Of a stretch of DNA of 64,000 bases, positions 39,192 through 54,498 are shown piece after piece; positions within the stretch are counted from its first letter, which is position 1; each line of letters opens with the position of its first letter. The position numbers and the translations under genes are program-made. The stretch lies in IMG/VR virus record IMGVR_UViG_3300044712_001463, one strand, 5' to 3'. This DNA comes from a virus. Lineage: Duplodnaviria; Heunggongvirae; Uroviricota; Caudoviricetes. Under the pieces are notes generated by a model. The model worked only from the letters and a program-made list of their open reading frames with translations, was not told the origin of the DNA and made no database searches.

Positions 39192-39746
39192 ATGAAGGCT
39201 AGAGTTATGGTTACTCTTAACTGCAATCGGAAGTGTGATGGATGTTGCAATAAAGGTCCAGTCTTTAATTTACACCAAGTTGCCGAGAATCTTGATGAGA
39301 TTCTGAAGGCAGATGAAATTATGATTACTGGTGGTGAACCCATGCTTTTACCGATTAAGGTTTTTGAATTCATCAAGATGTTGCGCTATCATAGGCAATA
39401 CAAGGGAAAGATTTATCTCTACTCTGCCTACTATCCTTCAACGGATAGAGAAAAAGAACACTTCTGGTATTGTGCAGACCTTTGCGATGGTGTGCATTTT
39501 ACCTTGCACGCTGAGGCTACGGACAGGGATGTGGCGGACCTTAAAAGGCTGTCAGAAGATTTAGGGGAGTGGGATAAAAAGCACCGCTCTTTCCGTCTTG
39601 CCATTGACAAGCGCCTCTATGAAAAGTTTGATTTCTCCAACATTGATTTCACCTTTTGGGATGTGGTCAGAAAGTTAGTTTGGATGACTGACTGCCCTCT
39701 GCCTAAAGATGAGAAACTATTCCTTTATGACTTGACAAGTCTTTAA
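39192..39746 (+). CDS. small radical-SAM domain protein (NrdG- or QueE-like)
   Basis: CNRKCDGC = CxxxCxxC; ITGGEPML glycine-rich SAM motif; start ATG 39192. Confidence 0.6.
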   Translation: MKARVMVTLNCNRKCDGCCNKGPVFNLHQVAENLDEILKADEIMITGGEPMLLPIKVFEFIKMLRYHRQYKGKIYLYSAYYPSTDREKEHFWYCADLCDGVHFTLHAEATDRDVADLKRLSEDLGEWDKKHRSFRLAIDKRLYEKFDFSNIDFTFWDVVRKLVWMTDCPLPKDEKLFLYDLTSL

Positions 39747-39759
39747 GAATATGTATAAT
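39732..39759 (+). promoter_or_regulatory. cassette promoter (unit near-identical to 54441)
   Basis: consensus; overlaps upstream stop. Confidence 0.7.
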
Positions 39760-39788
39760 AAAGTTACACTCAAACAAAGGAGGCTGTC

Positions 39789-40160
39789 ATGCGCGGTGCG
39801 GTCGTAGTCACCATCAAGCAGGAAGGCATGGTTGCAGAGAACGAGGTCTTCCTAGTCGGTCATCGCGGTCGTGGCTCGAAGGCGACCTGGAACAAGGCTA
39901 TGGGATACTTCATCCACAGCATCGAGTTCGCCTTCAAGAACGCTGACGACCTTTCTGGTCTTCGGGAGTTTCGGAAGCAGTTGAAGGCGAAGACCGAAAT
40001 GACTTCCGAGTTCGAGGAGTCAGAGGACGGTGGATGGCACAAGGTCGTCAAGCCTCTCTACGCTAGCGAGGATGAGTGGTTCGAGGACATCTTTGGGGAT
40101 GGCTTGTATGAACTCCCCAACGGTGAGGAAATCACCATCGCTTGGGCTAGCGTCAAGTAA
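39789..40160 (+). CDS. hypothetical protein
   Basis: Promoter 39732; RBS aaggagg. Confidence 0.5.
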   Translation: MRGAVVVTIKQEGMVAENEVFLVGHRGRGSKATWNKAMGYFIHSIEFAFKNADDLSGLREFRKQLKAKTEMTSEFEESEDGGWHKVVKPLYASEDEWFEDIFGDGLYELPNGEEITIAWASVK

Positions 40161-40179
40161 CCCTATTCAGGAGTCTGTC

Positions 40180-40689
40180 ATGGGCTGGATCAAGATGGGT
40201 GAGTTTGAGGTTGCTTCCAAGCGAGTCATGATCAGTGACCCCTGCTATGAGTCAGGGCAATCCCTCACGGCACTCAACGGAACCTACGATGCCTACATCT
40301 TCAAGAACAAGGAAGGTCGGGTCATGAAGTTGAAGGCGGTCAGGAAGGGATCCAAGGTCGTGGGTGGAATGCAGGAGGCTAGGATTGCAGGCGTGGACTC
40401 AGGTCAGATGAGCATCACGGACTACCTGCAATACCGCGAGAGCAACCCCAATGACCTGCGCCTGGTCACTTCGCTCTGGCAGGACACGCTCAAGGATCCT
40501 GATGGTGGTCAGTTCTACGCCGTGTGTTGCTCCCTGACCTGTGGCGATGACAACGGTCAGACCCAGCAGGGAGGCGTCTTCGCTAGTGGGTGCGTTTCGC
40601 AGTCAGGCTATGGGGATGGGGGATATCCCATTTTCTATGGTGAGGATGAGAACGGCGATTCGGTGGCTTTTGAGGTCAGGTTCAAATAA
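40180..40689 (+). CDS. hypothetical Gly/Cys-rich protein
   Basis: Start ATG 40180 with caggag SD. Confidence 0.45.
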   Translation: MGWIKMGEFEVASKRVMISDPCYESGQSLTALNGTYDAYIFKNKEGRVMKLKAVRKGSKVVGGMQEARIAGVDSGQMSITDYLQYRESNPNDLRLVTSLWQDTLKDPDGGQFYAVCCSLTCGDDNGQTQQGGVFASGCVSQSGYGDGGYPIFYGEDENGDSVAFEVRFK

Positions 40690-40692
40690 AGC

Positions 40693-40720
40693 TTGACAAG
40701 TTTCCAAAAGTAAGTATAAT
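40693..40720 (+). promoter_or_regulatory. cassette promoter
   Basis: consensus. Confidence 0.7.
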
Positions 40721-40784
40721 CATACTTACAAGAGGCAAGGGTTCCCCTCTCCACAAGTGAATCCACTCTCTCTAGGAGGTCGTC

Positions 40785-41027
40785 ATGTCCGAGAACACCC
40801 CGCAGGTCGAGCAGGCTCCCCGCAAGGTCGGTCGTCCCGTCACCATGACCAAGGAGGAGGTCGAGAAGATCCTCTCCCTGGGCGCCGAGCGCAACATCTC
40901 GTGTCAGAAGGCGTGCGCCATGGTCCACAAGAGCTACAGCACCTTCATCAGCGCGGCTCACCGCTACGGCGTGGCTCTCCCCGCCCGTGGTCGCCGGTCG
41001 AGCAAGAAGGATGAGGTCGCCGCCTAA
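40785..41027 (+). CDS. small putative DNA-binding protein, paralog of 33616
   Basis: Promoter 40693; shared motifs with 33616. Confidence 0.55.
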   Translation: MSENTPQVEQAPRKVGRPVTMTKEEVEKILSLGAERNISCQKACAMVHKSYSTFISAAHRYGVALPARGRRSSKKDEVAA

Positions 41028-41054
41028 CAACCGGTCACAGCCGAGAAACACCCA

Positions 41055-41090
41055 AAGGGAGGCAGAGAAATCTGCCTCTCTTTATTTTAT
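41055..41090 (+). terminator. rho-independent terminator
   Basis: gggaggcagagaaatctgcctctctttatttt. Confidence 0.6.
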
Positions 41091-41111
41091 AAATAAGTAA
41101 TTAAATAGGGC

Positions 41112-41139
41112 TTGACAAGTCCTAGGGAATAGATATAAT
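41112..41139 (+). promoter_or_regulatory. cassette promoter
   Basis: consensus. Confidence 0.7.
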
Positions 41140-41157
41140 AGAATCAGGAGGAAAGTC

Positions 41158-41982
41158 ATGAGTCTTTTTGACGCGCTCAACAAACATCTGAAACCCACGT
41201 TCGAGGTCGGAACCTTCTTTGTCTGGGAGGGCTCCGTATTCTTTATTTGCGGCAAACAGAATACGCAGTATTTGATTGAGTTGGTTGACAAGGGAGAAAA
41301 CAGAAGGGTTCATATCTGCAATTGTGAATCTTCGAATGGATTTGCCTGGTATATCAACGAAGGCACACATGAAAGCATAGACATTGTAAAGAAAGACGGA
41401 ACCGAGATTCGTAAAACTATTAAAGAGATAAAAGCAGATAACACCAAGACATATCCGCATTCCCTTCCAGCATTTAAGATTGGCGAAAAAGCAATGCGTG
41501 GTCGTGCAGGAAAGAAAACTATTGTAATAGTAAAATACAATCCTGCTGATGACTCTTTCTATTATGGTGATGGAGTTGAGAGCACTTTCGGCAGTCATAA
41601 CGACAGATTTAATTATGGGCGTAACGAATACAAGGAATCTGAATACTCGAAGATAGAGGAACCAAAGCCCGAGGCTCCAGCCGCCGTAACTCCAATGCGT
41701 GTAATATCTCCCATGGCTGTGACCCCCATTTCGCATAGGGAAACTCCTGACCATGGTGCAGGAGCAGGTTACAGGCGTGACGCCATATCAGGACTTGGTC
41801 GTTACGAAATGACTGAGAATGGTCATAACAAGTTCTGGTCTATCCGCCAACTTCCTTCAGGAAACTACGAAGCCACCTGGGGAAGGATTGGAACGGCTGG
41901 TCAGTCTATTATTTATTCAGCCGTAGAAGCAGCAAAGAAAATCAGAGAGAAAATAGCCAAAGGCTATGTTTTCGTGGAGTAA
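41158..41982 (+). CDS. MSLFDALNKH-leader protein with C-terminal WGR domain
   Basis: Leader variant; PAFKIGEKA; C-term FWSIRQL...YEATWGRIGTAGQ...AKKIREKIAKGY = WGR. Confidence 0.6.
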   Translation: MSLFDALNKHLKPTFEVGTFFVWEGSVFFICGKQNTQYLIELVDKGENRRVHICNCESSNGFAWYINEGTHESIDIVKKDGTEIRKTIKEIKADNTKTYPHSLPAFKIGEKAMRGRAGKKTIVIVKYNPADDSFYYGDGVESTFGSHNDRFNYGRNEYKESEYSKIEEPKPEAPAAVTPMRVISPMAVTPISHRETPDHGAGAGYRRDAISGLGRYEMTENGHNKFWSIRQLPSGNYEATWGRIGTAGQSIIYSAVEAAKKIREKIAKGYVFVE

Positions 41983-42478
41983 TGCCGTGAGCCTATTTGA
42001 TGCTATTAACAAACAACTTAAGCCTGTCATTGAAGCAGGGAACATGTTTTCCATAGATGGAAACGTGTTTCTTATTTGCTATATGCCAGAAAACGATACC
42101 GTTTTATTGCAGATAGTCGAAAGGAAAAGTCAAGACCTTGCTATGTATAGGCACAATCCTAATCCTGGAGACGCATGGTATAGCGGCGATTGTTCGAATA
42201 GAATGTATTGGTTTAGGATTGATGGCAAACAGTATTTCTATAAGGACGTAAAGCAACAGGCAAAACCAGTCTTTAATTATCCGAAATCCCCTTTCAAGAT
42301 TGGGGAAAGGGTAAGGGTTAAAAATCCTAAAAAGGTTAACAGCAATCGTGAGGAATTTGTTATTGTATCCTGCCACTTCGAAAATGGTAAATACTACTAT
42401 TCAGCGGGCGACTTTAACACCCATGTCGCCAACTATCCCCATCACTATAATTCCCAAGATGAGTTAGAAAAGGCTTGA
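41966..42478 (+). CDS. MSLFDAINKQ-leader protein (GC-rich family homologue); probable GTG start at 41987
   Basis: VSLFDAINKQLKP; PFKIGERVRV SH3-like motif. Confidence 0.5.
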   Translation: MFSWSNAVSLFDAINKQLKPVIEAGNMFSIDGNVFLICYMPENDTVLLQIVERKSQDLAMYRHNPNPGDAWYSGDCSNRMYWFRIDGKQYFYKDVKQQAKPVFNYPKSPFKIGERVRVKNPKKVNSNREEFVIVSCHFENGKYYYSAGDFNTHVANYPHHYNSQDELEKA

Positions 42479-42502
42479 CAAGTTCCAGTTATTCGGTATA
42501 AT
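42475..42502 (+). promoter_or_regulatory. cassette promoter
   Basis: consensus; -35 overlaps upstream TGA. Confidence 0.7.
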
Positions 42503-42544
42503 AGGATACATGAGAAGTTTCAAACCCATTCTTATGAGGCGGTC

Positions 42545-42934
42545 ATGGACGAGAAGGAGATGGTGAAGTTCCTGGATCAGCGCATCGTGGAGATCAAGGC
42601 GCTCACGGACGACAGCCCCCAGGGTGTCAACAAGTTCCTTGAGTTGGCTCAGGCGGTCGGCACGGAGCACATCCTGCGGGCAACCTTCTTCAAGGACAAG
42701 GAAGTGGTCATGAAGGCGGCGGAGTATCTCTGCGAGGTCGCTGACATGATGAACCGCTTCGAACTCGATGCTCGGATGCAGCAGGTCGGTCCGGGCGTCC
42801 TCGCCCTCGCGGTTGGCAAGAAGGGTGCCTTCGATGCCCAGCCCAAGGAGCCCGTCAAGGCAACGGACGAGGCGCTCAGGGCTCTCCTCGCCCAGGCGCT
42901 CAAGGAGAACGAGAAGCCCGACACGGCTGCTTAA
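42545..42934 (+). CDS. hypothetical protein
   Basis: Promoter 42475; leader cttatgaggcggtcATG. Confidence 0.5.
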   Translation: MDEKEMVKFLDQRIVEIKALTDDSPQGVNKFLELAQAVGTEHILRATFFKDKEVVMKAAEYLCEVADMMNRFELDARMQQVGPGVLALAVGKKGAFDAQPKEPVKATDEALRALLAQALKENEKPDTAA

Positions 42935-42956
42935 GAACCAAATCCCAAGCGAGAAC

Positions 42957-42997
42957 GAGAAGACCCAGGTGCAACTAGCCTGGGTCTTTTTGTTTGT
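42957..42997 (+). terminator. rho-independent terminator
   Basis: agacccaggtgcaactagcctgggtctttttgtttg. Confidence 0.65.
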
Positions 42998-43036
42998 CAC
43001 GACGGAGGACTTCTGACTCAGTCGGGTACCTACTCG

Positions 43037-43056
43037 CCTACTTAAAAATAAGTAGG
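43037..43056. repeat. inter-cassette palindrome CCTACTTA-AAAA-TAAGTAGG
   Basis: Lies inside a shadow ORF; partial extra half-site upstream (acctactcg). Confidence 0.75.
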
Positions 43057-43090
43057 TCTGAAGTACCCCAGCCCTGTAGATCAAAAGAGC

Positions 43091-43118
43091 TTGACAAGTA
43101 TCCAGGTTTATATATAAT
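43091..43118 (+). promoter_or_regulatory. cassette promoter
   Basis: consensus. Confidence 0.7.
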
Positions 43119-43137
43119 AGAGTCATGGAGGAAAGCC

Positions 43138-43659
43138 ATGAGTCTCTTTGATGCCATAGCCAAACATACCAAGAAAGAGGTTGATTGGAATAAGGCTGGC
43201 GAGTTTTTCGAACTCGATGGCGTTATCTTTTCAATCAATCATATTTCTGACATTGGCAGTCACAACCAATCTGCGTATGTAGGCGTTCATTCCAATCCCC
43301 TTAAGAAAAAGGTCATGGTTGGGAGGTTCAGGTCTGGAGATTTTTCAGGACAACATGATTTGACTAGGATTACGGCAGGCGAAGGTAATTGCCATATGTA
43401 TAAAAGCGCATCGGATGGACCCAACGCCATTCAGGTTGATGGGAAAGTCTTTGTTATTGGCAGAGACATGTTCACTTCCTGCACTAAAAGGTTCCCTCTG
43501 TTTGGGCTCTTCGGCAAGACAATGAGGATCAAGGGAGGCGGCTACGGCGACTTTAAGGTTCAGACTGCCTGGTTGATGCCTGATGGCACTTGGCTGTGTT
43601 CAGCGGGACAGCATCCTAGGCGCTCACATAAAGTCAGCGATCTTGAAGTTATAGATTGA
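43138..43659 (+). CDS. MSLFDAIAKH-leader protein
   Basis: Promoter 43091; SD ggagga; start at ATG 43138. Confidence 0.55.
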   Translation: MSLFDAIAKHTKKEVDWNKAGEFFELDGVIFSINHISDIGSHNQSAYVGVHSNPLKKKVMVGRFRSGDFSGQHDLTRITAGEGNCHMYKSASDGPNAIQVDGKVFVIGRDMFTSCTKRFPLFGLFGKTMRIKGGGYGDFKVQTAWLMPDGTWLCSAGQHPRRSHKVSDLEVID

Positions 43660-43683
43660 CAAGTAAAGGGATTTAGATATAAT
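43656..43683 (+). promoter_or_regulatory. cassette promoter (ATTGACA)
   Basis: -35 overlaps upstream stop. Confidence 0.65.
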
Positions 43684-43701
43684 AGAGTCATGGAGGAAGT
43701 C

Positions 43702-44211
43702 ATGAGTCTTTTTGATGCACTCGCCAAACAACTTGTTTTGCCCTTCTCTACGAAAGAGAGTGAAGGGCGTATTCTGACCATCCCTGGAACGAAAATCAAG
43801 TTCCTTTTTCGTGTTTATGACCATAGCGATAACACCTGCTATCTTCAAATTTACAAGATGCCCGAAGATGTGAAATATATTCATGGCTTTATTAAGGGTA
43901 GTGATGACAATGTGGTTTGCAAGTGGGATGAAGAAGGGGAATGCCAATGGGTTAATCTTGCTCAAACAGACCTTGCTATTGTTTACAAGAACAAGAAGGT
44001 TAAAAAACTCTCGATTCAGGATGGCAGAGAAGGGTTTATTGTTGACCTGCAAGACCCGAAACCCAAGTTTTGGCACCAGAAGGTCAAGTTTGTCAATTCA
44101 AAGAAGCGGGCTTTTAAGATTGAAGAATATCGGATTAATGACGGAGTGTTTGAATACAGGGACTTCGATGGAAACTGGCAACAGGAAGAAAACCTCAAGG
44201 CGGCGGAGTAG
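43702..44211 (+). CDS. MSLFDALAKQ-leader protein
   Basis: Promoter 43656; SD ggaggaag; start ATG 43702. Confidence 0.55.
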   Translation: MSLFDALAKQLVLPFSTKESEGRILTIPGTKIKFLFRVYDHSDNTCYLQIYKMPEDVKYIHGFIKGSDDNVVCKWDEEGECQWVNLAQTDLAIVYKNKKVKKLSIQDGREGFIVDLQDPKPKFWHQKVKFVNSKKRAFKIEEYRINDGVFEYRDFDGNWQQEENLKAAE

Positions 44212-44214
44212 GTC

Positions 44215-44490
44215 ATGGGTAAGTTAAAGGTTGGCAAGCCCATCATCATTCAGCGTCCCATCTACGCAATCCTGCCGCCTAATGCCACACCTGAACAGTC
44301 TAGGCGATACCAGGAGGCTCTTGCCGCCCTTCGCAAGAGATACCCGAAGCCCTTTGAACCTAGCCTGAATCAAAAGTATCATCCTGATGCCATCGAAAAT
44401 ACACATGATACATTCGAGGAATATGTAAGCGCCTTAACTAAAGCCGCAATCAAAGAAGGAAAGATTCTATTCCCGTATCTTTGCTCTTGA
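44215..44490 (+). CDS. hypothetical protein
   Basis: SD ggagtagg; 91 aa. Confidence 0.45.
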   Translation: MGKLKVGKPIIIQRPIYAILPPNATPEQSRRYQEALAALRKRYPKPFEPSLNQKYHPDAIENTHDTFEEYVSALTKAAIKEGKILFPYLCS

Positions 44491-44514
44491 CAAGTTTCCT
44501 GAAATAGATATAAT
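44487..44514 (+). promoter_or_regulatory. cassette promoter
   Basis: consensus. Confidence 0.7.
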
Positions 44515-44545
44515 AACATCATCACCCATTCATAGGAGGTCGGTC

Positions 44546-44773: not shown

Positions 44774-44801
44774 GATCCTCCACAACTCATGAAAGACCCT
44801 T

Positions 44802-48828: not shown

Positions 48829-48856
48829 TTGACAGGTTTTCATATCTATGTATAAT
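48829..48856 (+). promoter_or_regulatory. cassette promoter (TTGACAggt)
   Basis: consensus hexamers. Confidence 0.65.
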
Positions 48857-48900
48857 ACAACTATCAGCCCTGAATCACTTCTCTCTAAAGAGGCATCGTC

Positions 48901-49749
48901 ATGGCAAAGGACAGGTTCAACAGCGGGGACGAAGGAAAGAAGATGGACTGGCGGGCTCTTGAGTTGATTCAGGTCGAGAAGGTTCTCGGTTCCATTCCCA
49001 AGGGTCAGGTGTATGTGAGCCTCACCCACAAGTTCATGAAGCACGGCAAGATTGACCCCAAGTCGGAAGTCGGCATGGGGATTCGCCTTGGCATCTTCAG
49101 CCCCAAGCAGGTTGTGAGCGTGGATATGAATCCCTCTATCTGCGTTCTCAATCACCTTGGCAACCGTCAGGGAGTCAGCATCAAGCAGGGCGACCTCGCT
49201 CATGTGGTCAAGCGTCTTGTCGCGCAGGGCGTCAAGATTGCTTGGGTGTCGGCAGACCTCATGGCAATGCCCAAGAAGGTTGCTCCGTGGATTGCTTCCA
49301 TCATGGAGAGCCTGAACACCAAGGGACAGCCCGAAAAGGCAGGGCTGTTCGTCAACGCGGTGTCGCAGTCCCATGCCTACGATGTTCGGCACACCACCAT
49401 CCACAAGGTCATGGTGGCAGAGAGCGAAGAATTCAGGGCGGCATACCGCAAGTCGTCCTGCAAGCCCTCGGAGTGGCAGGAAGAAGATTGTCTGCTCTCC
49501 CACATCAACCACAGGACGGCAAAGGAGTGGATGCAGTCAGCCCTCTACATCAAGACACCCAACAAGGGATACAATCCCAACAAGAAGGTCGAACCCCCCA
49601 AGGCATCCGTTTACGCCATGCTCAAGAACGGGCAAAAGAAGCGCTACACGCGCATCGTCAACGAAATCGAGTGCCTCCGTTCTTCGGGCAAGAAAGCCGC
49701 CCGCCGCAGGTATCTCAACAGCCTCGTTGCAGGTTGGCTCGGCAAGTAA
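48901..49749 (+). CDS. hypothetical protein (282 aa, largest cassette gene)
   Basis: Promoter 48829; leader ctctctaaagaggcatcgtcATG; terminator. Confidence 0.55.
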   Translation: MAKDRFNSGDEGKKMDWRALELIQVEKVLGSIPKGQVYVSLTHKFMKHGKIDPKSEVGMGIRLGIFSPKQVVSVDMNPSICVLNHLGNRQGVSIKQGDLAHVVKRLVAQGVKIAWVSADLMAMPKKVAPWIASIMESLNTKGQPEKAGLFVNAVSQSHAYDVRHTTIHKVMVAESEEFRAAYRKSSCKPSEWQEEDCLLSHINHRTAKEWMQSALYIKTPNKGYNPNKKVEPPKASVYAMLKNGQKKRYTRIVNEIECLRSSGKKAARRRYLNSLVAGWLGK

Positions 49750-49769
49750 GCCCCAAACATCCTGAAGCA

Positions 49770-49810
49770 AACCAAGACCTTCCTAAATCGGGAAGGTCTT
49801 TTTCTTTCCC
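49770..49810 (+). terminator. rho-independent terminator
   Basis: agaccttcctaaatcgggaaggtctttttctttcc. Confidence 0.65.
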
Positions 49811-49847
49811 GGTCATCGCTGCGACTGGAGTGGCGCCTGGTCTCATC

Positions 49848-49872
49848 TGACCTACTTAAATATAAGTAGGTC
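49848..49872. repeat. inter-cassette palindrome GACCTACTTA-AATA-TAAGTAGGTC
   Basis: family member. Confidence 0.8.
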
Positions 49873-50038
49873 TTATCCGGGCAGCCCGCTGCAACTGATG
49901 TCCCAGGTGAGTAGTACTTTATTCTGAGGGCTCCCCTAATCTAGGTTCAAAACCTACTATAGATAGTTAGGGAATAATGTCCTACCCCTGCCCTTTATAT
50001 ATCAGGAAGACAAAACAACCCATTCTCTGAGGTGAGTC

Positions 50039-50353
50039 ATGTGGCACTACTCCATCAAGCAGTTCAACTACCAGACGGGGCAGTTCGAGTTTTACTCCCA
50101 CGGAGTCTCGACAGAGCACGAGGGGTGGGAGGTCGTCTTTGCCAATGCCGAGCAGTTCAGGTTGGTGGAGGCACCCCGGAAGTTCGGGCAGGTGCGACAC
50201 GGTATGCGTGCCACACTGACGGATAGGGCAACGCGGGAGGTAGTCTTTGTCGCACGGGTCTTTGAGGACGGAAACCCTGAGCAGCACGAACCCCTTCCTG
50301 GCGAGCCGCTCGAATACGAAGACCTCGCATCTCCCCTGGATTCTGAAGACTAG
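50039..50353 (+). CDS. hypothetical protein
   Basis: SD gaggtgag; no consensus promoter upstream. Confidence 0.45.
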   Translation: MWHYSIKQFNYQTGQFEFYSHGVSTEHEGWEVVFANAEQFRLVEAPRKFGQVRHGMRATLTDRATREVVFVARVFEDGNPEQHEPLPGEPLEYEDLASPLDSED

Positions 50354-50362
50354 TAGTCAAGT

Positions 50363-50397
50363 AAAAGAAGCCCCTAGAAATAGGGGCTTTTCTTTTG
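50363..50397 (+). terminator. rho-independent terminator
   Basis: gaagcccctagaaataggggcttttcttttg. Confidence 0.65.
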
Positions 50398-50444
50398 CGC
50401 AAACAACCAGGCGTCAGTTTGCCGGAGCTCCTGGGGACTCATAT

Positions 50445-50466
50445 ACCTACTTATATATAAGTAGGT
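50445..50466. repeat. inter-cassette palindrome ACCTACTTA-TATA-TAAGTAGGT
   Basis: family member. Confidence 0.8.
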
Positions 50467-50520
50467 CAGATGTCTCCTCCGCCAGCTAGCCGGGATCGAT
50501 CTGACTGGCGTCATCTCTTC

Positions 50521-50548
50521 TTGACAAGTTCTCATATTCATGTATAAT
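50521..50548 (+). promoter_or_regulatory. cassette promoter
   Basis: consensus. Confidence 0.7.
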
Positions 50549-50577
50549 AGACTTACACCCAAACCAAGGAGTAAGTC

Positions 50578-50751
50578 ATGGGATGCGATAACTGCAAATA
50601 CCTTAAGAGGCAGATATACGGTCTTCGCATGGATGGAACTGTTGATACTATCGGTTCCTGTATGTTCCTCGTCAATGGCATCAAGATTCGTGGCGCTAAG
50701 AAAGAAACCGACACCTGCGCCGACTTCGAAGAAACCCCAACCAAGGAGTAA
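50578..50751 (+). CDS. small Cys-containing protein (57 aa)
   Basis: Promoter 50521; SD aaggagtaag. Confidence 0.4.
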   Translation: MGCDNCKYLKRQIYGLRMDGTVDTIGSCMFLVNGIKIRGAKKETDTCADFEETPTKE

Positions 50752-50754
50752 GTC

Positions 50755-50991
50755 ATGAACAATCAAGAGCGCCAAGCCCTCATCAACGAACTGAACGCCA
50801 ACCTCAAGTCCATCCACAAGTGCTCCCGCCACACCCGCCGTGAACGGGCAGTCAGCGCAATGAAGGTCTGCCTTGCGCTCGGCAAGGACACGGACAACCG
50901 TGAGGATGGCGTCATCGACCTCTGCAAGAGCATCGTCAAGGCATCGGGGTATGCCTACGAGCGAATCGTCAACCTCGCCTTCATCCTCTGA
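50755..50991 (+). CDS. hypothetical protein
   Basis: SD aaggagtaag. Confidence 0.5.
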   Translation: MNNQERQALINELNANLKSIHKCSRHTRRERAVSAMKVCLALGKDTDNREDGVIDLCKSIVKASGYAYERIVNLAFIL

Positions 50992-50998
50992 GCAGGTC

Positions 50999-51175
50999 AT
51001 GGAAATCGTCATCCTCGAAAAATACACAGGCGGCAACCTCGTCAAGAAAGAACTTGCCGCCTTGAAGCAGGGGAAGAATCCGTGGAAGGGAGTAAGCGGA
51101 TTGAGCCCCTTGGTTAAGAAGATACAAAAGAGGAATGAAAAACTTCAGAACTTCAAAAAGCAATTCTCTTACTAG
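50999..51175 (+). CDS. small protein (58 aa)
   Basis: ATG after upstream stop. Confidence 0.35.
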   Translation: MEIVILEKYTGGNLVKKELAALKQGKNPWKGVSGLSPLVKKIQKRNEKLQNFKKQFSY

Positions 51176-51185
51176 GAGCGCCATC

Positions 51186-51425
51186 ATGCAAATCCACCTG
51201 TTGGTCATGGAAGAGATGAAACCCATCCCCAAGAACATCAAGGTTCTGTTTGACTGGGATGAAGTGGGCATCGTCACGGACAAGAAAACCACCGTCTCGG
51301 GGACGCACATGATGGTGGAAGGCACCGAGGAAGCGCTCAAGGCATGGCTGTCGCCGTTCGATGCTGTCTGGGTGGGCAAGGGAGCGCCCCAACTTCAGAA
51401 CTTCCAAGTCATGCACATCGCCTAG
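51186..51425 (+). CDS. hypothetical protein
   Basis: SD taggag. Confidence 0.45.
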   Translation: MQIHLLVMEEMKPIPKNIKVLFDWDEVGIVTDKKTTVSGTHMMVEGTEEALKAWLSPFDAVWVGKGAPQLQNFQVMHIA

Positions 51426-51436
51426 GGAGCCCTGTC

Positions 51437-51712
51437 ATGGAAATTACCAACATCGAGCAGTTGTATGACACCATGAGGGATTGCGGCATCTGCACCCCTG
51501 GTGAACGTTGGGCAGGTGGTCTTTCCCATCATCCCAAGTCCATCGCACTGTTCAATGCGCTTTCCGTCATCGATATGGTGACGAACAAGGGCGAAGGGGA
51601 TTGGACCTCTGGTGGTGACGGAGACAACGGAGAGCAGTTGATGTATCTTTTCGACATCATTTTCGAACTCGAAGGACTCGGATATACCGTCAGCAAAGAT
51701 GCGTGGATGTAG
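51437..51712 (+). CDS. hypothetical acidic protein
   Basis: SD tagggag. Confidence 0.45.
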   Translation: MEITNIEQLYDTMRDCGICTPGERWAGGLSHHPKSIALFNALSVIDMVTNKGEGDWTSGGDGDNGEQLMYLFDIIFELEGLGYTVSKDAWM

Positions 51713-51759
51713 TCATGGCACATATCCGACTTAGGTCAACCCGAAAAATGCGCTGAACT

Positions 51760-51800
51760 AAAAGAGGGCTCTCTTAACTGGGAGCCCTCTTCAGTTTTCC
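51760..51800 (+). terminator. rho-independent terminator
   Basis: agagggctctcttaactgggagccctcttcagttttcc. Confidence 0.6.
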
Positions 51801-51831
51801 GGTCATCTCCTCCCGGGGATCACCGGTAATA

Positions 51832-51854
51832 GACCTACTTACTTTTAAGTAGGT
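51832..51854. repeat. inter-cassette palindrome GACCTACTTA-CTTT-TAAGTAGGT
   Basis: family member. Confidence 0.8.
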
Positions 51855-51896
51855 ATAGCCTACCTAGCCAGGGAACCCGACCTGGTCATCTCGAGC

Positions 51897-51924
51897 TTGA
51901 CAAGTTCAAAGATTTCGGTATAAT
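51897..51924 (+). promoter_or_regulatory. cassette promoter
   Basis: consensus. Confidence 0.7.
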
Positions 51925-51944
51925 AGAATCAAGGAGATAGCCCA

Positions 51945-52352
51945 ATGCAAATCCACCAAACAATCGGCAAGGTGCGTAGCGCTCTAGAGATTTATGCTAG
52001 CCGCCATCATCTGCTCGGAGCAGACGAAAGTCTGACCTGCTGGTGTGCCATTGGGTCATCCGTTCTCAAGCGCATCCTGAAGGAAAAGCACAATCTCAAT
52101 CCCAAGTTTGTCCGAGGTGCGTGTCTCAATGGCAATCACTGCTGGATTGAATTAGAGGAATACGCGATTGATATAACCGCGTCGCAGTTCTTCAATCAGA
52201 AGGTAAAGATATTCAAGACCAAGAAATACAACAAGGATGAATACGACCCTATCGAAGTCCTAGAGAACGAATACAAACTTGATTGGGGAGACCAAGCACC
52301 CAAACCCAAGCACCTCAAGGCAGTAAAGGCAATCCTCAAAACCCTCTCTTAA
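51945..52352 (+). CDS. hypothetical protein
   Basis: Promoter 51897; SD aaggag. Confidence 0.5.
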   Translation: MQIHQTIGKVRSALEIYASRHHLLGADESLTCWCAIGSSVLKRILKEKHNLNPKFVRGACLNGNHCWIELEEYAIDITASQFFNQKVKIFKTKKYNKDEYDPIEVLENEYKLDWGDQAPKPKHLKAVKAILKTLS

Positions 52353-52375
52353 TCGGAGAGGGTTTTCTCTTTCCC
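52339..52375 (+). terminator. rho-independent terminator
   Basis: aaccctctcttaatcggagagggttttctctttcc. Confidence 0.65.
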
Positions 52376-52411
52376 GGCGATCTCTTCCGGTACGCGTGCA
52401 GCACTGCCAAA

Positions 52412-52433
52412 ACCTACTTATCTTTAAGTAGGT
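52412..52433. repeat. inter-cassette palindrome ACCTACTTA-TCTT-TAAGTAGGT
   Basis: family member. Confidence 0.8.
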
Positions 52434-52476
52434 GCCTGCCACCACCAGGATGTCCTCCCAGCGGGCGACTTTCTCC

Positions 52477-52504
52477 TTGACAAGTTCGCCTATTTATGTA
52501 TAAT
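52477..52504 (+). promoter_or_regulatory. cassette promoter (unit near-identical to 53528)
   Basis: consensus. Confidence 0.7.
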
Positions 52505-52534
52505 ATAATCATACCCAAACAAAGAGGTGCTCAA

Positions 52535-52756
52535 ATGAATCCGTGGGTTTCCTCAATCATCTTCCTCTCCTTCATCCTCATCTGCGCCAAGGACAAGATT
52601 CTTGCTCTGTTCTGTATCCTGCTCTTCATCGCAGAGAACACCTACTTCGGGTGGAACCTGCATCCTTCCTGCACAGGGGAAGAGGTCTGCGACTTGTTCG
52701 TTCTCATCGTTGGCATCTTTGCCCTCTTCCACGAACCCAAGACAAAGGAGAATTAA
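52535..52756 (+). CDS. small membrane protein
   Basis: Promoter 52477; start ATG 52535. Confidence 0.5.
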   Translation: MNPWVSSIIFLSFILICAKDKILALFCILLFIAENTYFGWNLHPSCTGEEVCDLFVLIVGIFALFHEPKTKEN

Positions 52757-52758
52757 CC

Positions 52759-53169
52759 ATGTCCATCCTCAAGCAAGCGCTCGACCTGTCAGGCGTCATC
52801 GACAAGAACGAAACAGCGAAGCAGGTGAATGAAGTCATCGACACCCTCGACCTTCACAGCAAGGAAGGAACCGCTGTCGGCAAGAACCTCGGTGTCCTGC
52901 TCTCGGCAACCAAGTTCGCTCATCACCTCGGAACCTTCAAGGCACTCTTCATCGTCATCCTCAACCTCGCTCTCTACAACAACATCCCTAATCACCTGCT
53001 CGCCATCTCTCTCGCCGTCCTCATCGACTTCCTCTTTCTCAGGTCTATGAAGTCCGTCCAAGAACGGTTCATGGTGGTCTGCATGGCATGGACTACCGAC
53101 TTCACCCTCGGCAGGTTCGACATGGAAGGCAATTCAGTCAAGACCTACACGAAGTTGATTCGGAAGTAG
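52759..53169 (+). CDS. membrane protein
   Basis: SD aaggag; start ATG 52759. Confidence 0.5.
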   Translation: MSILKQALDLSGVIDKNETAKQVNEVIDTLDLHSKEGTAVGKNLGVLLSATKFAHHLGTFKALFIVILNLALYNNIPNHLLAISLAVLIDFLFLRSMKSVQERFMVVCMAWTTDFTLGRFDMEGNSVKTYTKLIRK

Positions 53170-53382
53170 GACCATCGCAGTTCAGGTGTCCCTTCACAGG
53201 GTAAGACGACAAAAGGGTTCGCGTTTCATGGTAACGTCGAAGGATGTGGGTTCCTATTAGGAATTGCTAGGGACCAAGGTTAGAACCCCATTACCTACTT
53301 CACATCCGCAAGGGTAAGATAATCCCTGCATCTGACAAGCGTAATCTCATTCCCGTTCTGAGAAAACCAAGCAACGGGCAAT

Positions 53383-53420
53383 AATGAAACCCTCTCCTGC
53401 AAGAGAGGGTTTTTTGTTTG
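53383..53420 (+). terminator. rho-independent terminator
   Basis: aaaccctctcctgcaagagagggttttttgtttg. Confidence 0.7.
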
Positions 53421-53463
53421 TCAGCAGTCCCCACTGGTACCGGACATCTCCGACGGCAATAGA

Positions 53464-53483
53464 ACTACTTATATATAAGTAGG
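53464..53483. repeat. inter-cassette palindrome aCTACTTA-TATA-TAAGTAGG
   Basis: family member. Confidence 0.75.
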
Positions 53484-53527
53484 TAGGACATCCCAAGAAG
53501 TTCTCCTCCCAGGGGACTACTTCGCCC

Positions 53528-53555
53528 TTGACAAGTATTCGAATTTATGTATAAT
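53528..53555 (+). promoter_or_regulatory. cassette promoter
   Basis: consensus. Confidence 0.7.
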
Positions 53556-53585
53556 ATAATCATACCCACCAAACAGGAGACTTCC

Positions 53586-53825
53586 ATGACCAAGAACATC
53601 TTCAATGCAATCGTCATCACCTACATGCTCATCGCCATCGCTGTCTCCTGCTACTGCAATATCATCAAGGGGTTCCGAATCTTCGACCTGCCCATGCAGT
53701 TTCGGGAAGAGGTCTACACCGCTTCAGGTCTGCTGTGGAACCACATCACCACCGATTTCGCCCTGCTCTGCCTGATTCCCACCCTGCTTGTTGGGGTCTA
53801 CATCATCTTCTTTGTGAAGGACTAG
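53586..53825 (+). CDS. small membrane protein
   Basis: Promoter 53528 with leader near-identical to 52477 unit; start ATG 53586. Confidence 0.5.
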   Translation: MTKNIFNAIVITYMLIAIAVSCYCNIIKGFRIFDLPMQFREEVYTASGLLWNHITTDFALLCLIPTLLVGVYIIFFVKD

Positions 53826-53827
53826 TC

Positions 53828-54046
53828 ATGTTGACCTTCAAGGAAAACGTCAAGAAGTTCGGCAAACCCATTCAGGGCAAGGTCTATGACTGCAAACTCC
53901 AAAGTTTCACCTCGGGCAAGATTGTCGAGGAAAAGTTAGTCGCGGTCTTCAAGGATGACTGTGCGTGGAGAACGGCAGATGACTTCTCGGAAATCAACGA
54001 GATGAATTGGAACGTCATCGAATGGCATCTTGCCAAGGAGAAGTAG
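53828..54046 (+). CDS. hypothetical protein
   Basis: SD gaagga. Confidence 0.4.
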   Translation: MLTFKENVKKFGKPIQGKVYDCKLQSFTSGKIVEEKLVAVFKDDCAWRTADDFSEINEMNWNVIEWHLAKEK

Positions 54047-54048
54047 TC

Positions 54049-54294
54049 ATGAGCAATCCTCTGCGACAGGACAGACTTCCCAAGGACAAGAAGACCAAGC
54101 GGTGCCCTGCTTACATCCGTGAGAAGTATGGACTTGACAGGAGGGGCAAGGGGAAGAACGGGGAACTCTCCCTGCTTCAGGCATCCCACATCCTCGCTCA
54201 CCGCCCTGAACCTACCCTGCGTGAACACATCGAAACCTTCATCGCCAAGGTTTTCGGATATGAAGGCAACCTTCCTTGGAATGAGAGGATGTAA
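54049..54294 (+). CDS. hypothetical basic protein
   Basis: SD aaggag. Confidence 0.45.
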   Translation: MSNPLRQDRLPKDKKTKRCPAYIREKYGLDRRGKGKNGELSLLQASHILAHRPEPTLREHIETFIAKVFGYEGNLPWNERM

Positions 54295-54437
54295 TGACTA
54301 CCTTCGTTCTTATCCTCATAGTGTTTGCTTCCCTTACCTTCCTCTTTGGCATGATTGGTCTTGCCTTGTGGGGAATGGGGTTCATCAAGGGAACCATGCC
54401 CCTAACCAAAGCAAACACTGTTGGTCTTCGCCTTTAA
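54294..54437 (+). CDS. small TM peptide (47 aa)
   Basis: TAATG overlap; hydrophobic. Confidence 0.3.
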   Translation: MTTFVLILIVFASLTFLFGMIGLALWGMGFIKGTMPLTKANTVGLRL

Positions 54438-54440
54438 TCC

Positions 54441-54468
54441 TTGACAAGTCTTTAAGAATAGATATAAT
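54441..54468 (+). promoter_or_regulatory. cassette promoter
   Basis: consensus. Confidence 0.7.
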
Positions 54469-54498
54469 AAAGATACACCCCAACAAAGGAAGTCAGTC

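Follow-up and report, generated by a model that had tools for sequence, protein, structure and literature searches.

T4-type phages have mobile regulatory cassettes, the promoter-early stem-loop (PeSL) elements (Arbiol et al. 2010, PMC2839356; Comeau et al. 2014, PMC4122927), and with this model the idea of mobile regulatory modules is already known. The exchange mechanism has been shown experimentally in these phages (PMC2839356, PMC4122927), with crossovers mapped to the interval from -10 box to ATG (PMC2839356). The locus described here lies in a window of 64,000 nucleotides, the whole stretch of DNA that was analysed, which belongs to an uncultivated large phage, probably a jumbo phage. 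It shares with PeSL regions the dense arrays of near-perfect sigma-70 promoters, with a stem-loop terminator on the 5' side and a Shine-Dalgarno (SD) sequence and start codon on the 3' side, the hyperplastic character, rich in ORFans and tRNAs, and the similarity of modules whose flanking ORFs are unrelated. The break of identity between -10 box and ATG corresponds to the mapped PeSL crossovers. For the jumbo phage PA5oct, 36 stem-loop terminators are reported, as well as 32 promoters with TTGAC and TATAATA motifs (Lood et al. 2020, PMC7318152). Phages of its group carry the cultured homologue nearest to the short TilS of the window (42.7% identity), although PA5oct and the window are only distantly related, with no DNA similarity, and neither module reuse nor a palindrome was reported in that study (PMC7318152).

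The early-gene island and its promoter family

The early-gene island (28647..54932, + strand) is GC-rich (~50% GC vs ~33% for the genome), and palindromes stand first and last in it, at both borders. Its ~26 kb consist of ~30 small gene units, each opened by a near-identical promoter and leader and encoding mostly ORFans and tRNAs; 29 promoter modules, 15 palindromes, 8 tRNA genes and ~58 small ORFs are present, all on the + strand. Perfect TTGACA-N16-TATAAT sites number 32 in the window, on the + strand only and in GC-rich DNA only; such 12/12 matches, all with 16-bp spacing, compare with a chance expectation of ~0.01. The extended family consensus is cTTGACAAGT-N12-(g/a)TATAATAgag-leader-SD-(g)tcATG, and that of the leader is ..CAcTCAAnAGGAG..ATG. 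Downstream of every perfect promoter are found either tRNAs or an SD and ATG 18-45 nt past the -10 box; the leaders are short, CA-rich and unstructured, and are followed by a strong Shine-Dalgarno and (G)TCATG. Promoter activity, expression timing and termination are predicted from consensus, according to which the host RNA polymerase would fire all units immediately after infection. The members of the family, together with weaker sites, are the following (the promoters at 39732 and 54441 are given further below):

954..981, +, perfect promoter outside the island, drives MnmA-like gene
2403..2430, +, perfect promoter, drives SPFH gene
3436..3463, +, perfect promoter
28692..28719, +, perfect promoter, first in island; palindrome 28647 upstream
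30455..30482, +, perfect promoter, drives tRNA-Met(CAT)
30801..30828, +, perfect promoter
32011..32038, +, perfect promoter, partner of module 32750
32750..32777, +, perfect promoter, partner of module 32011
33520..33547, +, perfect promoter with long leader, copied along with its ORF; partner 40693
34495..34522, +, perfect promoter, drives tRNA cluster
35716..35743, +, perfect promoter
36490..36517, +, perfect promoter
37293..37320, +, perfect promoter
38167..38194, +, perfect promoter, drives Metallophos gene; palindrome 38114 upstream
39136..39163, +, perfect promoter; palindrome 39061 upstream
40693..40720, +, perfect promoter, partner 33520; ORF 40785-41027
41112..41139, +, perfect promoter, AATAGA subfamily, drives MSLFDA paralogue fused to WGR domain
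42475..42502, +, perfect promoter; TGA within the TTGACA box is the stop of the upstream ORF
43091..43118, +, perfect promoter, drives MSLFDA paralogue; palindrome 43037 upstream
43656..43683, +, perfect promoter, drives MSLFDA paralogue
44487..44514, +, perfect promoter, AATAGA subfamily
45810..45837, +, perfect promoter, AATAGA subfamily, 137-nt leader
47005..47032, +, perfect promoter, TATAGA
47943..47970, +, perfect promoter; palindrome 47878 upstream
48362..48389, +, perfect promoter, AATAGA subfamily
48829..48856, +, perfect promoter; palindrome 48756 upstream
50521..50548, +, perfect promoter; palindrome 50446 upstream; leader subfamily that of pair 1
51897..51924, +, perfect promoter; palindrome 51834 upstream
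52477..52504, +, perfect promoter, pair 2
53528..53555, +, perfect promoter, pair 2
37019..37046, +, decayed family member, cTTGACAAGT-N13-CATAAT
34041..34068, +, near-consensus promoter, CTGACA-N16-TATAAT; palindrome 33977 upstream
44946..44973, +, weaker promoter-like site, TTTAAA-N16-TATAAT with TG; palindrome 44881 upstream

Since there is an abrupt GC step at 54.8-55.3 kb (0.47 to 0.31), the island could be taken for an assembly chimera in which a GC-rich phage was joined to an AT-rich one. This is hardly credible, as an independent Logan assembly contig, 100% identical to 35038-59228, crosses the right island border, four island genes (MSLFDALNKH..) repeat the motif ..NLFESLNKQ found at the N-terminus in the AT-rich paralogue array, and the promoter family is also present beyond the AT-rich block, at 954-3463.

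Promoter similarity decreases with genomic distance (Mantel p=0.011), and the junction DNA is a patchwork, in which 12-22-nt blocks are common to differing partners. GC3 is strongly heterogeneous among the island ORFs (chi2=458, df=57), and its jumps across promoters are not larger than those within units (p=0.12). No close relative was found in any collection searched. The distant relative L035, with proteins 35-59% identical, has the same leader consensus (CAcTCAAnAGGAG..ATG) and promoters of the flavour TTGACAAGn with 17-bp spacing, and the five genes that it has in common with the window differ in order and agree in orientation; the promoter flavour of L036 and L040 is TTGACAATAATTCA. The junction layout is conserved in the relatives. 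As the promoters of each relative are homogenised to a flavour of their own, concerted evolution is indicated, and as the leader similarity is partly a functional consensus, kept in L035, selection is implied as well as recent exchange.

Promoter-leader modules and the ORFs behind them

On balance, it seems probable that the island is a hyperplastic early-gene region whose promoter-leader modules would offer portable homology to recombination or gene conversion, in a PeSL-like manner. The clearest case is a pair of modules, at 39732 and 54441 (pair 1), which a sequence-only reading had described as matching through the leader in front of unrelated proteins; the match is confirmed, with coordinates and sequences as given there, and no relationship between the proteins was detected.

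39722..39791, +, pair 1 module A: -35 box at 39732, -10 box ending at 39759, 29-nt leader, SD GGAGG, ATG at 39789
54431..54501, +, pair 1 module B: TTGACA at 54441, ATG at 54499; upstream ORF ends at 54437
39789..40160, +, Cys-free ORFan of 123 aa, driven by module A
54499..54744, +, Cys-rich ORFan of 81 aa, driven by module B

From 10 nt 5' of the -35 box through the ATG, 60 of the 71 aligned columns are identical (85%; 39722-39791 vs 54431-54501), and the flanks, 60 nt on each side, are at the background of the same scoring (46-47%). Module A forms a 'tight' junction, where the upstream ORF (39192-39746) terminates within the promoter spacer. Because the promoters of pair 1 come from a 32-member family, significance was assessed with column shuffles that preserve the family consensus (1000 shuffles, 54 variable columns). 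Matches were found in 37 of the 54 variable columns, against a null family-wise maximum of 28.7 +/- 1.4, with 35 in the top shuffle of the 1000 (family-wise P<0.001). The 13-nt spacer by itself (11/13) is not significant (family-wise P=0.25); the signal is that of spacer and leader jointly. The drop of identity to the background level comes exactly at the ATG; by the similarity of their first 90 nt, the two ORFs take rank 52 of 57. BLASTP gives no hit for the downstream proteins, and the Smith-Waterman z is 2.3 in pair 1 and 2.1 in pair 2 (52477/53528), compared with 42 for a true paralogue pair. No homologue was detected for ORF 39789 among 5.8 billion proteins, nor for ORF 54499 among 1.8 billion; the AF2 model of the former has an alpha/beta fold (pLDDT 72) and is without PDB match. 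As the weakly constrained spacer and leader positions are ~85% identical, little neutral divergence is implied for pair 1, and a cassette duplicate this little diverged would be expected to keep recognisably similar ORFs, which supports separate histories for module and ORF.

It could be argued that promoters and leaders have simply converged on one optimum for host transcription and translation, the closest pairs being the tail of a distribution. The perfection of all 32 promoters, the leader consensus found in L035 despite the low protein identity, and the non-significant spacer-only test would agree with such a view. Pure convergence is already disfavoured and must be considered very improbable, since shuffles keeping the column composition peak at 35 (n=1000) where 37/54 were observed, pair 2 is alike in non-consensus DNA far 5' of the promoter, and similarity is clustered by position.

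The behaviour of pair 1 had also been attributed to pair 2, whose features are as follows:

52339..52537, +, pair 2 junction A: terminator hairpin 52339, palindrome 52413, promoter 52477, leader, ATG 52535
53385..53588, +, pair 2 junction B: terminator 53386-53413, palindrome 53464, promoter 53528, leader, ATG 53586
52535..52756, +, small membrane protein of 73 aa behind junction A
53586..53825, +, small membrane protein of 79 aa behind junction B

The similarity of these modules is borne out, with 33/54 variable columns matching, which exceeds the shuffle null. It begins at the terminator hairpin (52339/53385), takes in palindrome and promoter and stops ~12 nt before the ATG (~200 nt in all), is uneven (53-83% per block), and reaches ~130 nt 5' of the promoter through non-consensus DNA. 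That the ORFs are unrelated cannot be upheld in the same way: the cassettes are adjacent, and the ORFs 52535-52756 and 53586-53825 may be diverged paralogues or remote homologues, because both encode ~75-aa two-TM proteins and, within the island, each has the other as its closest match over the first 90 nt, though narrowly.

A third group had been proposed from the modules at 44487, 45810, 47005 and 48362. It is a real promoter subfamily, with AATAGA immediately 5' of TATAAT in 5 promoters vs 0.59 expected (reached in 3/5000 shuffles), although its membership had to be revised: 44487, 45810 and 48362 belong to it, 41112 and 54441 had been missed, and 47005, with TATAGA, is a near-member. The general conclusion drawn there, that modules and ORFs recombine independently, suits pair 1 but goes too far, as module and ORF were copied together elsewhere. 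Modules 33520 and 40693 precede paralogues that are 59% identical (33616-33852 vs 40785-41027), and modules 41112, 43091 and 43656 precede the MSLFDA paralogue family, whose genes are 20-29% identical outside a conserved N-terminus; modules 43656 and 41112 are 78% identical over 78 nt, 30 nt of ORF included. Whole-cassette duplication followed by fast ORF divergence thus clearly also happens in the island.

These copied cassettes, together with the adjacency, ORF type and 5' mutual best match of pair 2 and with Smith-Waterman z values above zero (2.1-2.3), would fit a history in which whole cassettes were duplicated and the ORFs diverged under diversifying selection, with promoter and leader held by purifying selection and no exchange between module and ORF. 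Such a history is unlikely, given that in pair 1 the low-information positions are so similar and the ORF DNA is at background from codon 1, that the two proteins are of unequal length (123 vs 81 aa) and cysteine content, and that modules 32011 and 32750 share the module and the first 6 codons, and then nothing (z=-0.5), the proteins being otherwise unrelated.

Exchange between promoter-leader modules, the explanation preferred here, is read from mosaic joints, because no close relative exists. Dozens of direct repeats of the same 60-200-nt module could supply portable homology. Through recombination or short-patch gene conversion among them, one module would come to stand before unrelated ORFs (39732/54441), the modules would be kept uniform within the genome, and the intervening ORFs could be moved or deleted. 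Palindrome and terminator would be unnecessary for this exchange, because pair 1, the pair of highest identity, lacks both, as do the 12 'tight' junctions to which it belongs.

The palindrome and the terminators

In about half of the units, an intrinsic terminator is followed after ~50 nt by a palindrome of 20-22 bp, CCTACTTA-N4-TAAGTAGG, and after another 25-55 nt by the promoter, so that terminator and -35 box are ~100-130 nt apart. The palindrome occurs at 15 sites (30 strand-hits vs 0.11 strand-hits expected), 14 of them with an upstream terminator, and the sequence of its arms is itself conserved, beyond mere pairing ability. The palindromes (no strand assigned) and a number of terminators are:

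28647..28666, palindrome CCTACTTA-N4-TAAGTAGa, left island border
33977..33996, palindrome
38114..38133, palindrome
39061..39080, palindrome
43037..43056, palindrome
44881..44900, palindrome
45526..45545, palindrome, sole copy without upstream terminator; overlaps 3' end of ORF 45005-45544
47878..47897, palindrome
48756..48775, palindrome
49851..49870, palindrome
50446..50465, palindrome
51834..51853, palindrome
52413..52432, palindrome, pair 2 junction A
53464..53483, palindrome, pair 2 junction B
54913..54932, palindrome, right island border, at the GC drop
38029..38064, +, intrinsic terminator, 50 nt 5' of palindrome 38114
47809..47837, +, intrinsic terminator, 5' of palindrome 47878
48657..48688, +, intrinsic terminator, 5' of palindrome 48756
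49774..49800, +, intrinsic terminator, 5' of palindrome 49851
41054..41083, +, intrinsic terminator, 29 nt 5' of promoter 41112, no palindrome between (classic PeSL layout)

The palindrome core, ACTTAA-N2-TTAAGT, lies 5' of TTGACA promoters in L035, L036 and L040 and at 16 metagenome loci, which also carry homologues of window genes. In the island, the distances from palindrome centre to -35 box fall at 35, 43-44, 53-55 and 63-65 nt, a helical phasing with Rayleigh R=0.88 at 10.1 bp (p ~1.5e-4; 11 junctions, partly related by descent); in the pooled relatives phasing was not seen (R=0.10). Such phasing relative to the promoter speaks for a role in transcription, and most likely the palindrome is bound by a dimeric DNA-binding protein, which would act on the downstream promoter from one helix face. 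The terminator would insulate about half of the units from the preceding one.

It might also be proposed that crossover or cleavage takes place at the palindromes, in an integron-like system of site- or structure-specific recombination that mobilises cassettes from terminator to terminator, with the promoter modules as passengers. The 15 copies do lie at cassette boundaries, the first and last at the island borders, and the element is conserved over a clade with shuffled gene order. The proposal is nevertheless quite improbable: the 64-kb window yielded no recombinase, and as sole nuclease an HNH gene at a distance of 26 kb, the palindrome is missing from pair 1 and the 12 'tight' junctions, its phasing suggests transcription, and the cassettes have their own promoters, which integron cassettes do not.

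Comparison with known systems

The host-takeover module of the Bacillus phage SPO1 is said to consist of many small early genes in one orientation and in short operons, for each of which the host-sigma promoter is reportedly very strong and the ribosome-binding site strong, and to sit in the terminal redundancy. The island resembles it in these features of gene size, orientation, operon length, host-sigma promoter and ribosome-binding site, with no sequence relationship; SPO1 is not known to show modular exchange or a conserved palindrome. Lambdoid morons are reportedly autonomous promoter-gene-terminator units that interrupt the series of other genes and in many cases deviate in base composition. 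The island units are likewise autonomous inserts of this kind, but morons are single scattered insertions with unrelated promoters, whereas the island is an array that reuses one promoter module. For phi29 p4 and class I CRP-type activators, as at the island promoters, an inverted repeat is centred ~70-100 bp 5' of the sigma-70/sigma-A start site, at a position that depends on the helix face; these sites may offer an analogy for the palindrome alone, their sequences being unrelated.

As for the PeSL elements, their hosts are T4-type, whereas the phage of the island is without demonstrated T4 kinship. In PeSL the terminator is immediately adjacent to the -35 box, which in the island is ~100-130 nt away, and twelve island junctions, the best pair included, are without any stem-loop. 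The island is further distinguished by its 32/32 perfect promoters with 16-bp spacer, by a GC content ~17 points above the rest of the genome, and by the conserved 20-22-bp palindrome that about half of the junctions have between terminator and promoter. What is new here is this conserved palindrome, helically phased to the promoter, with its core similarly placed in distant relatives.

A uniform promoter family in a GC-rich island

A regular-expression scan of the 64-kb window finds 32 perfect TTGACA-N16-TATAAT sites, all on the + strand, against about 0.01 perfect (12/12) matches expected; three of them lie at 0.9-3.5 kb, the other 29 in the stretch 28.7-54.5 kb. Looser promoters (at least 9/12) number 47 between 38 and 57 kb, compared with 22.5 in shuffles, and 19 of these 47 are perfect. 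Aligned on the -35 box, the sites have the extended consensus c-TTGACA-AGT-t..c..a..Ta.g-TATAAT-AgagtcAt, and the spacer is exactly 16 bp in 32/32 promoters of this genome, whereas 17 bp predominates in all relatives examined (contigs L033, L035, L036 and L040 of distant relatives, and further metagenome loci). Early expression by the host RNA polymerase is what this consensus suggests. In most modules (promoter plus leader up to the ATG) the SD sequence and ATG stand 18-45 nt 3' of the -10 box, and (G)TCATG is a very frequent start context; two perfect promoters are followed by tRNA genes instead. A few modules have leaders of 65-135 nt, and long leaders lie downstream of three promoters:

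33548-33615, long leader
40721-40784, long leader
45838-45973, long leader

The leaders of promoters 33520 (AAGGG..CCCTT) and 40693 (GAGG..CCTC) contain GC hairpins, and the long leaders could be attenuators, stabilisers or small RNAs. Among Rfam covariance models, only tRNAs matched the window at gathering score, leaving both the shared and the long leaders unmatched; the shared leaders are therefore no known RNA element.

All perfect promoters lie in DNA of ~45-52% GC, and the remaining window, at ~32-38% GC, has zero such promoters. The large GC-rich block (the island, from ~28.65 to 54.93 kb) has an abrupt right border, at which GC falls from 0.47 to 0.31 in 500 nt; this border is not an assembly join, since a contig from an independent Logan assembly matches window 35038-59228 at 100% identity. 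Composition borders near 3.8, 28.6 and 54.9 kb make this one genome bimodal, with promoter blocks of ~50% GC against ~33%, and GC3 of the ORFs is 0.63 +/- 0.14 in the island versus 0.31 +/- 0.07 outside. This bimodality could stem from foreign DNA, or from highly expressed early genes whose codon use has adapted to a GC-richer host. GC3 often reaches 0.8-0.9 in the first ORF downstream of a promoter; a coincidence of GC3 jumps with promoter boundaries is unsupported (p=0.12).

The island holds ~58 small + strand ORFs in units of 1-4 genes, nearly all without a Pfam or PHROG match, together with 7-8 tRNA genes. Those with annotation encode a short TilS-like PP-loop protein, a metallophosphoesterase, a DUF4241 protein and a WGR domain, and there is one weak radical-SAM and one weak Lar-like domain match. 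No core phage genes are found in the window, which is part of a genome, and no recombinase domain in any window ORF scanned. Genes for an MnmA-like 2-thiouridylase and the short (210-aa) TilS-like lysidine synthase adjoin phage tRNA genes (1009-2031, 29843-30475, 30494-35554), and directly downstream of the TilS-like gene is a tRNA with a CAT anticodon, possibly tRNA-Ile2.

The AT-rich block 8615-28502 is a tandem array of ~33 paralogous genes of ~150 aa each (some doubled, 288-324 aa), in which the stop codon of one gene overlaps the start codon of the next. The common N-terminus is MISYR(A)NLF(E/D)S(L/I)NKQ, and the proteins are up to 100% identical over their first 15-25 residues and 25-50% identical or unrecognisable thereafter; the members tested have no Pfam or PHROG match. 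Their 10-residue leader MISYRANLFE, ending L-x-E, resembles the 10-aa leader MKTYQEFIAE, which is the capsid-targeting sequence of T4 internal proteins (PMC8442874), and because of this resemblance the array proteins may, by analogy, be injected or encapsidated. Four island genes start with MSLFDALNK(H/Q), which is the array motif without its prefix. Other features outside the island are as follows, the first of which may serve to regulate the AT-rich gene block:

55209-55252, inverted repeat GTGTGACACC-N24-GGTGTCACAC in a ~900-nt non-coding stretch just outside the right island border
2028-2399, HNH endonuclease gene between the MnmA-like and SPFH genes
6016-6825, Dam-type N6-adenine methyltransferase gene in AT-rich DNA

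Modules and the ORFs behind them

The sequence-only reading had quoted near-identical modules in front of unrelated ORFs, and these sequences are present exactly where it placed them; they are members of the 32-promoter family. Pairs were therefore compared over 54 variable columns, those left between -10 and +60 (counted from the -35 start) once fixed positions were dropped, against 1000 shuffles that kept the composition of each column. The modules at 39732 and 54441 match in 37/54 columns, as do 41112 and 43656, and the family-wise maximum of the null is 28.7 +/- 1.4 and never above 35. In a gapped alignment, 39732 and 54441 are identical at 60/71 positions (85%), from 10 nt 5' of the -35 box through the ATG, while the 60-nt flanks on either side show 46-47%, which equals background. 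Their spacer alone (11/13 variable positions) is not family-wise significant (P=0.25), the signal coming from spacer and leader matching jointly. Both junctions are tight, with neither terminator nor palindrome: ORF 39192-39746, which precedes 39732, runs past the -35 box and stops at a TAA in the spacer, and ORF 54294-54437 stops 3 nt before the -35 box of 54441. In four further cases (-35 boxes 42475, 43656, 44487 and 48362) the TGA inside TTGACA is the stop codon of the upstream ORF. Where upstream ORFs end in TTGACA or the spacer, the promoter module thus provides the stop codon of the preceding gene.

On its right side, this similarity ends exactly at the ATG. Over their first 90 nt, the downstream ORFs 39789 and 54499 rank 52/57 in similarity among island ORFs, all-against-all BLASTP gives no match between them (nor between the ORFs of the second pair discussed below), and Smith-Waterman comparison against shuffles gives z=2.3, compared with z=42 for the true paralogues 33616/40785. 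The 123-aa protein 39789 has itself as sole match among 5.8 billion sequences, and the 81-aa Cys-rich protein 54499 has only itself and weak repeat-like matches among 1.84 billion representatives. Single-sequence AlphaFold models, with pLDDT of 72 and 47, respectively, are too low in confidence for fold comparison, and Foldseek of the 39789 model against PDB returned no match at E<0.001. As the modules have diverged by ~15% at weakly constrained sites while ORF identity is at background from the first codon, the claim that these two modules precede apparently unrelated proteins is accepted on sequence grounds.

The second pair, the junctions 52477 and 53528, stands only in part. The likeness of the modules is real, with 33/54 matching columns, above the 28.7 +/- 1.4 of the null. 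It begins at a terminator hairpin (52339/53385), takes in a palindrome and the promoter and reaches ~18 nt beyond the -10 box, in blocks of 70, 53, 79, 61, 82 and 83% identity, and fades ~12 nt before the ATG. Breakpoint mapping relative to ATG and palindromes, as had been proposed, places the first pair up to the ATG without a palindrome and the second across one. The downstream ORFs 52535 and 53586 (z=2.1) lie in adjacent cassettes and both encode two-TM proteins of ~75 aa; within the island, the 5' end of each is most like that of the other (score 6, next best 5), which may be caused by composition; "unrelated", as judged from these sequences, is not accepted for them. The third proposed group likewise proved to be a real subfamily with partly different membership. 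In five promoters, versus 0.59 expected (3/5000 shuffles), the hexamer AATAGA immediately precedes the -10 box; 47005 has TATAGA instead, and 41112 and 54441 belong. The members, all on the + strand, are:

41112, +, AATAGA promoter
44487, +, AATAGA promoter
45810, +, AATAGA promoter
48362, +, AATAGA promoter
54441, +, AATAGA promoter

Other cassettes have been copied whole. Modules 33520 and 40693 resemble each other in their upstream DNA and long leaders too, and their ORFs are paralogues of 59% identity, while modules 41112, 43091 and 43656 precede a fast-diverging family, MSLFDA(L/I)xK.., with a nearly invariant N-terminus, 20-29% identity overall and one member fused to a WGR domain. Duplication of a cassette followed by divergence of its ORF, the main rival explanation for shared modules, certainly operates for some island cassettes, but as the general explanation it is judged rather unlikely. 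At 32011 and 32750, the leader and first six codons are common (87% over 38 nt) and the proteins are then unrelated (z=-0.5). Because of the copied sets and of joints of this type, two processes are visible in the island: duplication of a module along with its ORF, and joining at the ORF start or slightly within it. The proposal that modules and ORFs recombine independently therefore agrees with the 39732/54441 and 32011/32750 joints, but not with 33520/40693 or the MSLFDA modules, which were copied with their ORFs. Promoter similarity also declines with genomic distance (Spearman -0.145, Mantel p=0.011).

The terminator-palindrome-promoter junction and its relatives

The alignment of 52477 and 53528 exposed a palindrome, (A)CCTACTTA-N4-TAAGTAGG(T), a short (20-22 bp), perfect repeat. 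Its 15 sites all fall within the island (30 strand-hits versus 0.11 expected), with the first and last copies at the island borders. At 14 of these sites a strong terminator hairpin with a T-run precedes the palindrome by 40-60 nt, and 12 have a perfect or near-perfect promoter 25-55 nt downstream, so that half of the junctions are three-part: terminator, palindrome and promoter. This layout is found at 10 perfect promoters, with the hairpin ~100-130 nt from the -35 box; promoter 41112 directly follows a terminator, and 12 promoters, 39732 and 54441 among them, lie against the upstream ORF or overlap it and have no hairpin. The DNA between terminator, palindrome and promoter is a patchwork of 12-22-nt blocks common to different partners.

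The arms of the palindrome are conserved in sequence and do not covary, its centre is AT-rich and variable, and it lies outside the predicted transcripts; these properties point to a candidate protein-binding site and not to an RNA structure. An RNA hairpin or RNase III site was considered and rejected, the stem being 7-10 bp, the arms conserved without covariation and the position downstream of terminators. From the palindrome centre to the -35 box the distances fall into classes of 35, 43-44, 53-55 and 63-65 nt, with helical phasing at a 10.1-bp period (Rayleigh R=0.88, p ~1.5e-4 after scanning 9-12 bp, which is optimistic because the junctions are partly related by descent). This is the pattern that would be expected of a factor held to one helix face relative to RNA polymerase. 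A literature search for the palindrome sequence returned no paper.

The island gene most widely common to palindrome-bearing relatives, often adjoining a palindrome, encodes a small protein family (83-96 aa):

28890-29141, window
9162-9443, contig L035
15970-16230, contig L036
739-1029, contig L044
2471-2755, contig L054

Profile search of this 28890 family (83 aa in the window) gave no Pfam family and only a weak match (E=0.04) to the helix-hairpin-helix DNA-binding domain of DisA; it is at most a candidate palindrome-binding protein.

Close relatives are absent from the phage records, IMG/VR, metagenomes and protein collections searched. Neither 38-56 kb nor 5-25 kb had a megablast match among 50,697 phage records, protein-seeded IMG/VR scans with the Metallophos and WGR proteins gave no relative, and IMG/VR scans for the extended promoter and the window-form palindrome gave single matches per contig, at chance level. 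A first metagenome scan with the window-specific palindrome and TTGACAAGT matched nothing, the source contig included. Metallophosphoesterase homologues occur at 56% on the small AT-rich contigs L033 and L034 and at 35% on L035, a 90-kb Logan contig of 51% GC which also has TilS-like, DUF4241, 28890-like, WGR and 53828-like genes, in a different order and the same orientation. L035 carries 17 promoters TTGACAAGn-(17-bp spacing)-TAnnnT followed by ..CAcTCAAGGAG..ATG leaders, and nine palindromes TACTTAA(A/C)TTTAAGTA. Every one of these palindromes stands 26-55 nt 5' of a -35 box, in most cases with a terminator ahead of it. The short TilS family numbers 959 metagenomic members at ~50% identity, and its nearest cultured carriers are PA5oct-group Pseudomonas jumbo phages (42.7%). 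The TilS-linked contigs L036 and L040 show this layout too; their promoters are homogenised to a flavour of their own, TTGACAATAATTCAnCnATAGG, and their palindromes are aTACTTAAATTTAAGTAt and cAACTTAAATTTAAGTTg. These TTGACAATAATTCAnCnATAGG promoters, at L036 7288-16414 and L040 10523-14909, precede GP88, MoxR-like AAA, CobT_C and ligase genes; their almost invariant spacer points to either a factor that reads the spacer or strong concerted evolution within that lineage.

Scanning metagenomes for ACTTAAATTTAAGT-N19-49-TTGACAA-N16-TA yielded 16 loci, and a single 6.9-kb contig carries as many as three copies. Most have an upstream terminator, although none was in the query, and several encode homologues of window genes (TilS, 28890 family, Metallophos, WGR, 33616-like and 37350-like). 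The recurrence of the layout in L035, L036, L040 and these loci marks the three-part junction as a clade-wide feature, and within each genome the promoter modules have evolved in concert.

Module reuse compared with PeSL cassettes and integrons

The central idea of reused regulatory modules is already published. Promoter-early stem-loop (PeSL) cassettes of T4-type phages consist of a near-consensus sigma-70 promoter, an upstream stem-loop and a downstream SD and ATG, and are concentrated in ORFan-rich hyperplastic regions; PeSLs recombine together, leading to ORF deletion, insertion or swap, with crossovers mapped between -10 box and ATG (PMC2839356, PMC4122927). Recombination or gene conversion between modules would, in the same manner, place one module before unrelated ORFs. 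This explanation predicts what is observed: a joint at the ATG for 39732/54441 and six codons in for 32011/32750, genome-specific homogenisation of modules, and shuffled, co-oriented gene order in relatives. It is regarded as the probable explanation of module reuse, and no more than probable because selection on the functional consensus contributes to leader similarity.

What is noteworthy here is the clade-conserved, phased palindrome between terminator and promoter, the 16-bp spacer shared by 32 uniformly perfect promoters, and the confinement of the system to a GC-rich island in a lineage without cultured close relatives. Early-gene islands are a store of fast-evolving host-takeover and anti-defence genes; this locus, with its 32 perfect promoters and sharp mosaic joint at an ATG, is an unusually clean natural example of the PeSL strategy. 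The palindrome is an easily testable new cis-element and, as a DNA signature, retrieves related islands from metagenomes (16 loci in one scan), and the promoter-leader modules are ready-made strong expression parts.

A much bolder idea, considered a long shot, is that the junction is a dedicated "cassette socket" of an uncultivated phage clade, where a phage protein acting on ACTTAA-N2-TTAAGT would promote cassette exchange between genomes. If true, the socket would insulate any captured ORF and automatically give it a perfect early promoter, making it the phage equivalent of an integron, but with expression signals that move together with the site. Integrons differ in having an adjacent tyrosine-recombinase integrase and attI, whereas no recombinase domain is found in the window ORFs scanned; their cassettes are promoterless, whereas every unit here has its own perfect promoter; and attC is an imperfect palindrome of ~57-141 bp in each cassette, unlike the perfect 20-22-bp repeat, which is absent from half of the junctions.

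The PeSL promoter, near TTGACA-N17-TATAAT, corresponds to the 12/12 matches here, with a 16-bp spacer instead of 17; the SD and start codon at the 3' end are shared, as is the setting among ORFan-rich, non-essential genes (~58 small ORFs). The PeSL stem-loop lies just upstream of the promoter; here a terminator directly precedes promoter 41112, the hairpin is ~100-130 nt off at 10 promoters, and 12 have none. In PeSL phages, indels and replacements between close genomes end at the elements, and recombination of flanking elements yields mini-circles; here only distant relatives are available, with gene order shuffled and orientation kept. PeSL carriers are T4-type myoviruses; the nearest cultured TilS homologues of this phage are in PA5oct-group jumbo phages. 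The locus suggests that the PeSL strategy, a reusable module that both expresses ORFans and helps to shuffle them, reaches well beyond cultured T4-type phages.
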